64,000 nt of DNA from a virus (taxonomy: Duplodnaviria; Caudoviricetes): the IMG/VR virus record IMGVR_UViG_3300047551_002158. The stretch is one strand, 5' to 3'. Numbering within the stretch: the first letter of the stretch is position 1; every line of letters starts with the position of its first letter. This document shows, one piece after another, positions 5,664-38,283 of the stretch. Below the pieces are notes generated by a model. It made no database searches and had not been told where the DNA came from. It saw only the letters and a list, made by a program, of their open reading frames with translations. A program made the position numbers and the translations under genes.

Positions 5664-5990
5664 ATGGGGAAGCATTATTTACTTAACTTGTATGGATGCT
5701 CGTTTGTCCTTTTGGACGACGAGCGTTGTCTTATAGACCTATTAGAGTGTGCAGCAGAAGCAAGCGGTGCTACTGTGGTTCAAACTATCTCAAAAAAGTT
5801 TGAACCACAAGGAGTAACCGTTATTTGTTTGCTTTCTGAAAGTCATATTAGTATTCATACTTGGCCAGAAGAAGGTAAGGCAGCAGTGGATGTATATACC
5901 TGTGGAGATTGTAATCCAAAGATCGGGTGTGATATGATTATCCATCAACTCTTTGCTACTAATCATACGTTGAGTTACATAGAACGGTAA
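5664..5990 (+). CDS. speD: pyruvoyl-dependent S-adenosylmethionine decarboxylase family proenzyme
   Basis: MGKHYLLNLYGC, FEPQGVT, LSESHISIHTWPE self-cleavage motif, DVYTCG. Confidence 0.93.
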   Translation: MGKHYLLNLYGCSFVLLDDERCLIDLLECAAEASGATVVQTISKKFEPQGVTVICLLSESHISIHTWPEEGKAAVDVYTCGDCNPKIGCDMIIHQLFATNHTLSYIER

Positions 5991-6000
5991 CAAAAGTTAC
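5987..6000 (+). promoter_or_regulatory. NtcA-type binding box
   Basis: GTAACAAAAGTTAC = GTA-N8-TAC with GTAAC/GTTAC palindromic arms; TAATAT (-10-like) at 6013-6018. Confidence 0.65.
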
Positions 6001-6024
6001 AAAATAAAAATCTAATATATTATA

Positions 6025-6118
6025 CGTTCATCCCTTTGGGACGGAAGTAAGTTGACGCGGAACGGATCGTTCATTCGCTATTCTCAAATAGCGAACGCAA
6101 CCGCCGACTGAAGGAACG
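6025..6118 (+). ncRNA. glutamine riboswitch-like element (glnA / Downstream-peptide class)
   Basis: P1 CGTTC/GAACG, P2 TCCC-TTT-GGGA, E-loop GGAAGTA/GAAG, P3 AGTTG/CGACT; sits directly upstream of a YRGVxY peptide. Confidence 0.8.
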
Positions 6119-6149
6119 CTCTTTAACCTCAAAATTAAGGAGAACCCTA

Positions 6150-6287
6150 ATGTCAAAAGTAGTATATCGTGGTGTCGAATATGACACTCAAAAGCGTCTT
6201 GAATATCAACAACAGATGATGCAACAACCTCAACAATACAATGAAACCTATCGTGGTGTTAAATTTGTAAAAGAGGGGCATAAGTGA
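6150..6287 (+). CDS. DUF4278-like 45-aa peptide (putative GS-inactivating-factor-related)
   Basis: SD AAGGAG at 6137-6142; MSKVVYRGVEYDTQKRLEYQQQMMQQPQQYNETYRGVKFVKEGHK* with two YRGV motifs. Confidence 0.8.
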   Translation: MSKVVYRGVEYDTQKRLEYQQQMMQQPQQYNETYRGVKFVKEGHK

Positions 6288-6288
6288 A

Positions 6289-6390
6289 ATGAATACTTAC
6301 TTTGTTCGTTATCTTAAGAAAAAAGCAAAGAAGGAACAACTCCTTCATAATGCACAACTGAATATGGCAAAGCAACCTCAAGTTGCTTAA
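6289..6390 (+). CDS. 33-aa basic peptide
   Basis: MNTYFVRYLKKKAKKEQLLHNAQLNMAKQPQVA*; starts 1 nt after the previous stop and ends just before the terminator. Confidence 0.65.
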   Translation: MNTYFVRYLKKKAKKEQLLHNAQLNMAKQPQVA

Positions 6391-6396
6391 TATTTC

Positions 6397-6426
6397 AAAG
6401 AGGGTCTTGACTGACCCTCTTTTTTT
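6397..6426 (+). terminator. intrinsic terminator
   Basis: AAAGAGGGTC-TTGACT-GACCCTCTTT followed by a T tract. Confidence 0.85.
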
Positions 6427-6435
6427 ATGTATAAT
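6407..6435 (+). promoter_or_regulatory. sigma70-type early promoter
   Basis: TTGACT-17 nt-TATAAT; the -35 lies in the terminator loop. Confidence 0.8.
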
Positions 6436-6458: not shown

Positions 6459-6701
6459 ATGGATAAAGAAAAGCTTAAACTCATCATAAGAAACTTAGAG
6501 TCTCTTGTAGACTGTCTTAAATCAGAAGTTTATTCTGATGTAGATTCATATAAACCAGAAACTCAATATGAAGATATTGCTCCTTATATTGACGATTATG
6601 ATGAGGTCTTCTATGATGAGGAAGATGATGAGATCTATGGACCAGTAAAAGTAAACAAGAAATACAAACTAACCAATGATGATGATGGAGATGGACTGTG
6701 A
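6459..6701 (+). CDS. acidic hypothetical protein
   Basis: MDKEKLKLIIRNLESLV... first ORF after the early promoter. Confidence 0.75.
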   Translation: MDKEKLKLIIRNLESLVDCLKSEVYSDVDSYKPETQYEDIAPYIDDYDEVFYDEEDDEIYGPVKVNKKYKLTNDDDGDGL

Positions 6702-7420
6702 AAGAAATGTTTGATGAATTTGAATTTATGAAACCAGAAGTTAAACTTGTTTCAGTGACGCCAGATGCAGAAAAACATATGGCATATTGTGCAAGGGTTT
6801 CAAATCCAAAAAATCAAGACAATGAAAGTTTTGAAGGACTTCTTAAGTATTGTATTAAACATCAACACTGGAGTATTTTTGAGCAAGCAAGTCTAACAGT
6901 AGAGATTAATACAACCAGAGGTATTGCTGCTCAGATTTTGCGACATAGGAGTTTTACTTTTCAAGAGTTTTCCCAAAGGTATGCTGACACAAATCTGTTG
7001 AATGAAACTATTCCTCTTCCAGAACTTCGTAGACAGGACAATAAGAATCGTCAGAACAGTATTGATGACCTTCCGGAGTATCTGAAACTGACTCTGTTAG
7101 AAGATATTAGAATGCATTTTGAGCAGTCTCAGAGGATCTACAACCGCCTTCTGGACAAAGGTGTGGCAAAGGAGTGTGCAAGGTTCGTATTGCCCTTAGC
7201 GACGCCTACACGCCTTTATATGACTGGTTCTGTAAGGTCTTGGATACACTATATTGATCTTCGTTCGGCTCATGGAACTCAAAAGGAACATATGGATATT
7301 GCTGAGGCAATTCGTTGTATTTTTACTTGTCAATTCCCAGCAGTTTCTACTGCTCTTGGTTGGACTCGTGATAACTGTGATGATTGTGAAAGTATCCAAC
7401 CATCAGTTCGTATAGACTAA
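6698..7420 (+). CDS. thyX: flavin-dependent thymidylate synthase
   Basis: HWSIFEQ, QILRHRSFTFQEFSQRY ThyX signature, ECARFVLP. Confidence 0.96.
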   Translation: MKEMFDEFEFMKPEVKLVSVTPDAEKHMAYCARVSNPKNQDNESFEGLLKYCIKHQHWSIFEQASLTVEINTTRGIAAQILRHRSFTFQEFSQRYADTNLLNETIPLPELRRQDNKNRQNSIDDLPEYLKLTLLEDIRMHFEQSQRIYNRLLDKGVAKECARFVLPLATPTRLYMTGSVRSWIHYIDLRSAHGTQKEHMDIAEAIRCIFTCQFPAVSTALGWTRDNCDDCESIQPSVRID

Positions 7421-37804: not shown

Positions 37805-37889
37805 GGGAGCGTGGTGGAATCGGTAGACACACCTGACTTAAAATCAGTTGGGCATTACGCCCGTGGGAGTTCAAGTCTCCCCGTTCCTA
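37805..37889 (+). tRNA. trnL: tRNA-Leu(UAA)
   Basis: Acceptor GGGAGCG/CGTTCCT, anticodon loop CTTAAAA, long variable arm, T-arm GGGAG-TTCAAGT-CTCCC; no intron and no encoded CCA. Confidence 0.95.
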
Positions 37890-38210: not shown

Positions 38211-38283
38211 GCCTCTAAAGCATTAAGTGGCGATGTACCGCTCTTGTAAAGCGGAGAGGACGGTTCAATTCCGTCTGGGGGCT
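38211..38283 (+). tRNA. trnT: tRNA-Thr(UGU)
   Basis: Acceptor GCCTCTA/TGGGGGC, anticodon arm CCGCT-CTTGTAA-AGCGG, T-arm GACGG-TTCAATT-CCGTC. Confidence 0.93.

Follow-up and report, generated by a model that had tools for sequence, protein, structure and literature searches.

A conserved cassette of T4-like cyanophages with an NtcA-type box, glutamine aptamers and two small peptides

The 64,000-nucleotide (nt) stretch of viral DNA in IMG/VR record IMGVR_UViG_3300047551_002158 (the whole stretch is called the window here) contains, just behind the gene speD, a short region in which a preliminary description made from the sequence alone had recognized a nitrogen-sensing unit. The question raised by this locus is whether the region is a self-contained unit built like the host gifB and Downstream-peptide genes, and what its products might do. 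The source of the window is a T4-like cyanomyovirus; its closest partial matches (S-SRM01, DSL-LC02 and S-CREM1) are all Kyanoviridae, and freshwater metagenomes were the main source of DNA near-identical to it. By sequence comparison, the region is a conserved cassette of T4-like cyanophages and not a chance arrangement. We think it fairly probable that this widespread cassette is host-derived and expresses two small peptides according to host nitrogen status. The comparison supports a self-contained unit of the kind proposed, and its NtcA box, glutamine aptamer, DUF4278 peptide and terminator were all present, in the following order:

5987-6000, no strand assigned: NtcA-type box GTAACAAAAGTTAC (GTA-N8-TAC), whose first bases overlap the speD stop codon at 5988-5990
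6013-6018, + strand: -10-like TAATAT with no good -35; predicted transcription start at about 6024-6026
6025-6065, + strand: aptamer unit 1, with CGTTC at 6025-6029, a hairpin at 6031-6034/6038-6041, CGGAAGTA at 6042-6049 and GGAACGG at 6059-6065
6068-6118, + strand: aptamer unit 2, with CGTTC at 6068-6072, a hairpin of 9 base pairs (bp) at 6074-6082/6087-6095, CGCAA at 6096-6100 and GAAGGAACG at 6110-6118
6119-6142, + strand: predicted hairpin sequestering the Shine-Dalgarno (SD) sequence, in which CUCUUUAA (6119-6126) pairs with UUAAGGAG (6135-6142); SD AAGGAG at 6137-6142
6150-6287, + strand: peptide 1, 45 amino acids (aa), two YRG repeats, DUF4278 / phrog_5049
6289-6390, + strand: peptide 2, 33 aa, basic helix, with its ATG 1 nt after the peptide 1 stop codon
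6397-6428, + strand: intrinsic terminator with a 10-bp stem (6397-6422), a 6-nt loop and a T-run

When IMG/VR was scanned for the pattern of the unit 1 core, at least 120 loci matched. For comparison we used 110 non-identical phage loci, made up of the IMG/VR matches listed and isolate genomes (individual loci are cited by L or P numbers). These had been gathered by matching unit 1 motifs, and the flanking motifs recurred in all 110. The cassette is common to more than 100 related T4-like cyanophage loci, and the conservation across cyanophage genomes that had been suggested as a check was borne out.

The two peptides and their host homologues

Peptide 1 has the 45 aa and two YRGV motifs previously attributed to it. 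Its proposed relationship to DUF4278 and to IF17 stood as a matter of family membership: the window protein itself scored 19.1 bits against Pfam DUF4278 (PF14105), under the cut-off of 25.3, whereas diverse relatives matched DUF4278 in 29/29 cases (best E 1.8e-13), and hhalign placed the phage peptide 1 family with the IF17 N-domain at 96.6% (E 4.7e-10). The relationship did not extend to the IF7-like part. The IF17-type reference proteins, taken from 36 of 151 cyanobacterial genomes, have three YRG repeats followed by an IF7-like C-terminus or another helical C-terminus, and the middle repeat is the one missing in the phage. A PDB search with peptide 1 gave no match. When the window was compared with three relatives encoding an identical peptide 1, the 10, 18 and 14 nucleotide differences were all at third positions and silent. 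These comparisons indicate that peptide 1 is translated and under strong constraint.

The basic 33-aa peptide was likewise present as an open reading frame (ORF) and belongs to a conserved family of 28-39 aa, the start of which overlaps the peptide 1 stop codon as ATGA in most loci. Nucleotide differences in peptide 2 fell mostly at third codon positions. Judged on these comparisons peptide 2 is a real gene, and both peptides are under purifying selection. Sequence searches of Pfam, NCBIfam, PHROGs and PDB with peptide 2 returned nothing meaningful, but a peptide 2 profile had matches in 46 of 201 picocyanobacterial genomes. All 12 of the host matches that were fetched lay directly behind hits to Rfam RF01704 (37.7-56.1 bits). 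The hhalign comparison of phage peptide 2 with the N-terminal helix of the host peptides (consensus MNxLxLIRxxILKxQRLHxAQ) gave 96.3% with an E of 1.6e-9, and BLASTP aligned peptide 2 with a 33-aa host peptide at 35% identity (E 3e-4). This homology to the helix of riboswitch-controlled host peptides was absent from the preliminary description. The host helix module falls outside the coverage of Pfam DUF4278.

In the host proteins (L176-L187) the helix either stands by itself (33 aa) or has two or three YRG repeats behind it (57-83 aa). Fusions also occur in phages, with the YRG module before the helix in S-CREM1, L030, L035, L047 and L094 and the helix before the YRG module in L096, L100 and P0171; P0154 repeats the helix-then-YRG pair. 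Because the host joins helix and YRG modules in one protein and the phage modules are homologous to them, the phage operon can be read as the two-module host peptide, split and reordered. The split ORFs are probably translationally coupled. A predicted complex of peptide 1 with peptide 2 had a score of 0.00 and low pLDDT, which is not evidence either way.

Two other assignments of peptide 2 were rejected. As the IF7-like C-terminus of a split IF17 it gave 0.3% in hhalign, with or without the host helices in the profile, and as the other C-terminal class of DUF4278 proteins it gave about 1%. Many helix peptides end in a C-x3-C motif (in the fused-module group of loci that includes L002).

The glutamine aptamer RNA

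The RNA had been described as a single structure with P1 CGTTC/GAACG, P2, an E-loop and P3. The P1 strands at 6025-6029 and 6114-6118 were found, and the Rfam glnA model RF01739 matched 6023-6122 at 46.1 bits, above its gathering score of 35. The P3 did not hold up. In the Rfam alignment 6025-6029 pairs with 6114-6118 and 53 nt are placed in P3, so that the match is a composite of two aptamer units, its 5' half coming from one and its 3' half from the other; the P3 of the window, between CGGAAGUA and GAAGGAACG, would be a 3-bp AGU/ACU helix round that 53-nt insertion, and relatives show AGC versus ACU at these positions. Nor did the Downstream-peptide model apply: RF01704 (now Glutamine-II), with a threshold of 33 bits and a 3' hairpin enclosing GGAACG, scored 17.9 bits on unit 1 and 15.2 on unit 2.

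Each unit contains CGTTCA, a hairpin, a CG(G/C)AA junction and GGAACG, and the RF01739 hallmarks of a P1 CGUUC/GAACG and a covarying P2 hairpin are found in both; a P3 within one aptamer is found in neither. Among relatives, the unit 1 hairpin occurred in 72 distinct sequences and the unit 2 hairpin in 30, all of which fold. Tandem glnA RNAs have been documented (PMC2864571). The comparison supports reading the RNA as two tandem aptamer units instead of one riboswitch with a P3.

We regard it as unlikely that the RNA is one type 1 glutamine riboswitch, with P1 at 6025-6029/6114-6118, an E-loop formed by GGAAGUA with GAAG, and a P3 carrying the 53-nt insertion. That structure is the highest-scoring alignment (46.1 bits, versus 33.4 for unit 2 and 26.2 for unit 1 taken separately), and it alone unites both E-loop strands, since unit 1 has GGAAGUA without GAAG and unit 2 the reverse. 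However, its supposed insertion contains its own CGTTCA, covarying hairpin and junction, its 3-bp P3 is not kept, and cmscan matched the two units separately in S-PM2. The same 9-bp hairpin serves as unit 1 in some phages and as unit 2 in others, tandem arrangements have precedent as noted, and in 52 of 54 other loci an ORF of about 150 nt lies inside the unit 2 hairpin while unit 1 stays compact.

Those 54 loci were at one point taken as a single-unit class, an assignment we rejected, as unit 2 is present in 52 of them and split by an ORF in its hairpin loop. The nested ORF (L127, L129, L004, L011 and 48 others) is complete, encodes 49-67 aa and belongs to phrog_504, of unknown function. It starts with an ATG within the 5' hairpin arm and ends in codons for DAKAD-stop that are supplied by the conserved aptamer junction; the two arms pair, for example TCTAT with ATAGA. 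A DUF4278 ORF follows 3' of it in these loci. The window has the simple form, in which unit 2 carries no nested ORF.

Directly behind the tandem units, the SD AAGGAG proposed earlier was present, and the bases just 3' of the unit 2 P1 can form an 8-bp hairpin with it (-8.6 kcal/mol, z -2.96). Because this hairpin is invariant in the window subgroup, covariation cannot test it. For gifB, Klahn et al. (2018, PMC6212724) proposed the same pairing between bases 3' of P1 and the ribosome binding site, with glutamine binding as the event that would open the inhibitory helix. In their study, reporters carrying either type of host aptamer were expressed more strongly following an ammonium upshift (PMC6212724).

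The NtcA-type box, promoter and terminator

The GTA-N8-TAC box was found at 5987-6000 as described. By itself the motif is not rare (17 copies in the window, versus 10.1 +/- 3.3 expected), but all the others lie within long ORFs, and this copy does not. Across the phage loci a perfect GTA-N8-TAC stood no more than 100 nt upstream of the aptamer CGTTCA in 92 of 110, against 2.6% predicted from the background density in the same loci (0.31 GTA-N8-TAC per kb). These loci hold 70 distinct box sequences with constant GTA and TAC and variable inner bases, and because the outer triplets are kept while the inner bases vary, a protein site fits better than a hairpin. That the palindrome is not an NtcA site, but an RNA hairpin ending speD or the site of another protein, strikes us as very remote: a 5-bp hairpin (-3.9 kcal/mol) is possible there and abuts the speD stop codon, but the inner 8 nt are often unpairable among the 70 variants, no T-run follows, the box is present whatever the upstream gene (speD, nrdB or others), and the same motif stands 5' of the host homologues.

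The distance from box to aptamer was sharply peaked, at 39-48 nt in 74 loci (mode 44-45), 24-25 nt in 11 and 5-7 nt in 15. The window (24 nt), S-CREM1 and DSL-LC02 belong to the 24-25-nt class. In the 13 host loci (the 12 peptide 2 profile matches and one Prochlorococcus DUF4278 locus), a perfect GTA-N8-TAC lay 4-23 nt upstream of the aptamer in all 13 and 20-23 nt upstream in eight; the window spacing is near that of these eight, in agreement with the gifB-like arrangement that had been claimed. The boxes at 5-7 nt were not counted as independent NtcA sites, as nine of the 15 are the palindrome variant GTATGCTAACATAC, which co-occurs with a box at about 44 nt (metagenomic loci).

The -10-like TAATAT was also where it had been placed, and a TAnnTA/T element lies 12-13 nt 3' of the box in both phage spacing classes. 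We infer a transcription start near 6025, and it is because the start is placed there that the box centre falls near -31. With respect to an NtcA-repressed promoter, in which the box lies within the core promoter, the motif of the window is perfect and conserved and its position of about -31 depends on the predicted start; most relatives have the box near -50. In this majority class TTGACT/TTGCAT-17-TAnnnT sits between box and aptamer, a segment of about 20 nt that the window class lacks. The majority-class -10 lies in the loop of a palindrome with covarying arms (GGTCTA..TGACC; GTGTTA..TAACAC), as at L003:1730-1760, L018 and L045.

By analogy with the host genes, the window site is more likely a repressor site. 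NtcA could instead act as an activator with class II spacing, a start near 6035 and a transcript lacking the 5' strand of unit 1. GTA-N8-TAC is indeed followed after 22 nt by TACGTT (TAN3T), the canonical class II spacing, which is exact in the window and S-CREM1 and met in DSL-LC02 too; the lack of a good -35 would suit an activated promoter, and Sullivan et al. (2010, PMC3037559) take cyanophage NtcA sites as promoters. However, a start near 6035 would remove the CGTTCA common to all 110 collected loci, and the 22-nt spacing is missing from the majority class. The box of the host homologues lies inside or adjoining the core promoter, repression of such host genes on nitrogen starvation has been described (PMC6212724; PMC2864571), and a gene switched on when nitrogen is poor yet translated when glutamine is high would follow contradictory logic. 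We consider activation quite improbable.

The strong terminator reported at the end of the cassette was confirmed (-16.4 kcal/mol, z -4.83; 0/200 shuffles as stable). Contigs from two metatranscriptome libraries fell on 6039-6369 and none on speD; one of them (6105-6364) was identical to the window, although pile-up from relatives is possible and such contigs cannot show a transcription start.

Proposed regulation, possible targets and genomic setting

We propose that transcription would begin near 6025 from a promoter with a -10 only, and that host NtcA, bound when 2-oxoglutarate is high (nitrogen-poor cells), would repress it from about -31. Without glutamine, the SD would be held in the hairpin with the bases just 3' of the unit 2 P1; binding of glutamine would free it, so that peptide 1 could be translated, and peptide 2 by coupling. 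With NtcA repression and a glutamine ON switch combined, the peptides would be made only in nitrogen-replete infected cells. NtcA repression, switching-on by glutamine and any effect on glutamine synthetase (GS) are elements that we infer.

Several observations weigh against this scheme. A promoter scan also found GTTACA-16-TATTAT at 5996-6023, an alternative promoter that would start inside unit 1. In the 74 of 110 loci with the box 39-48 nt from the aptamer, a full TTGACT-17-TAnnnT promoter lies between the two, which puts the box near -50 and not at a classical repressor site. Each aptamer unit by itself scores below the RF01739 gathering score and has no P3, and the SD hairpin, invariant within its subgroup, is not evident in other subgroups. 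Given possible DNA carry-over, and flanks that are less conserved than the module itself, the RNA-library contigs are only compatible with transcription. Finally, the IF7-like C-terminal region of IF17 is not present in peptide 1, and peptide 2 has no similarity to it (hhalign 0.3%).

This last point bears on the claim that the phage holds a complete copy of gifB logic tuning GS. The claim was overstated, because peptide 1 corresponds to the DUF4278 N-terminal part of IF17 only. In Synechocystis, interaction with GS depends crucially on the C-terminal sequences, which are missing from picocyanobacterial IF17-like proteins (PMC6212724). We therefore doubt, without dismissing it, that the peptides inactivate GS in the manner of IF17 or IF7. 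In favour are the homology of peptide 1 to the IF17 N-domain, control logic like that of gifB, and the combination of a YRG module with a basic helix, which resembles IF17 with its DUF4278 domain and basic IF7-like helix; the region crucial for GS interaction is nonetheless missing from the one peptide and undetectable in the other. As the target we would guess first at some part of nitrogen assimilation or signalling in the host, with GS as one candidate that has no specific sequence support. Tentatively, the two peptides, as a split and reordered host helix-plus-YRG peptide, might form a riboswitch-gated viral effector that binds GS, PII or PipX and pushes nitrogen-replete infected cells towards 2-oxoglutarate accumulation, with NtcA feeding back. 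If true, the virus would have an auxiliary gene that is itself regulated by two metabolites of the host.

The gifB (IF17) leader of Synechocystis sp. PCC 6803 combines an NtcA-repressed promoter with a type 1 glutamine riboswitch (Klahn et al. 2018, PMC6212724). Common to it and the cassette are a GTA-N8-TAC near the promoter, a 5' untranslated region with a glutamine aptamer, bases behind P1 that pair with the ribosome binding site, and DUF4278 in the product. Unlike gifB, the cassette is phage-borne, its leader contains two tandem aptamer units, both lacking P3, and its product has two YRG repeats instead of three and no IF7-like C-terminal region, with a second, helix-encoding ORF after it. 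Glutamine-II RNAs with IF17-like peptides are known from marine and freshwater picocyanobacteria, the likely hosts of the phage, and share with the cassette an NtcA box upstream of the aptamer (4-23 nt in the hosts) and the same helix and YRG modules. In those host loci a single aptamer precedes a single ORF, for the helix with or without YRG repeats after it; the cassette of the window has two of each, with the YRG ORF ahead of the helix ORF, and, unlike them, reaches only 17.9 bits on RF01704.

Among phages, the glnA riboswitch of S-CREM1 (PMC9964418) has a leader 86% identical to that of the window with the same 24-nt box spacing, and S-CREM1 encodes one fused peptide (YRG motif plus helix) where the window has two ORFs. 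The S-CREM1 paper (PMC9964418) makes no connection between this RNA and either NtcA or the peptide encoded downstream. The NtcA sites predicted in cyanomyoviruses (Sullivan et al. 2010, PMC3037559) have the same motif in the same phage group; they were read as NtcA-driven promoters in general, while the window site is tied to one cassette. The ingredients are already published separately: glutamine riboswitches or glnA RNAs in T4-like cyanophages (PMC9964418, PMC9602691), and the host combination of NtcA box, riboswitch and DUF4278 (PMC6212724). In our literature search, no paper brought NtcA box, riboswitch and DUF4278 together in phages, and none described the helix module.

No function has yet been proven for the peptides that glutamine riboswitches precede in the most abundant phototrophs of the ocean. 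Because viruses keep the sensor and both peptide modules in more than 100 loci under strong purifying selection, it can be argued that the peptides matter during infection. S-PM2 p190/p191 and the fused S-CREM1 gene would make small, tractable test cases, and the link between peptide 2 and the host helix widens the IF17-like picture beyond DUF4278. If the proposed regulation is true, this auxiliary gene set would be gated by two host nitrogen signals, rather than being constitutive.

The cassette was also seen on contigs filed under metagenome-assembled genomes (MAGs) of Bacteroidota, Acetobacteraceae, Poseidoniales, Dehalococcoidia and Rhodospirillaceae and on a 189-kb contig of a Prochlorococcus single-cell genome (together L135-L139, L141/L143). 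The probable explanation is phage DNA that was binned, or captured, together with those genomes. A contig search for peptide 1 gave mostly phage contigs in MAGs and single-cell genomes, and its true host homologues came from genome searches.

In the window, the cassette is flanked by speD (5664-5990; AdoMet_dc, E 2e-34) on one side and by an 80-aa ORF and then thyX (6698-7420) on the other. A near-consensus promoter, TTGACT-17-TATAAT (11/12), at 6407-6435 starts within the loop of the cassette terminator and lies 5' of the next gene (6459-6701, phrog_878); phrog_878 adjoins the cassette in other phages too. Elsewhere in the window, two tRNA genes were found at 37805-37889 and 38211-38283 (Rfam 53.3 and 46.0 bits), the first with a long variable arm.

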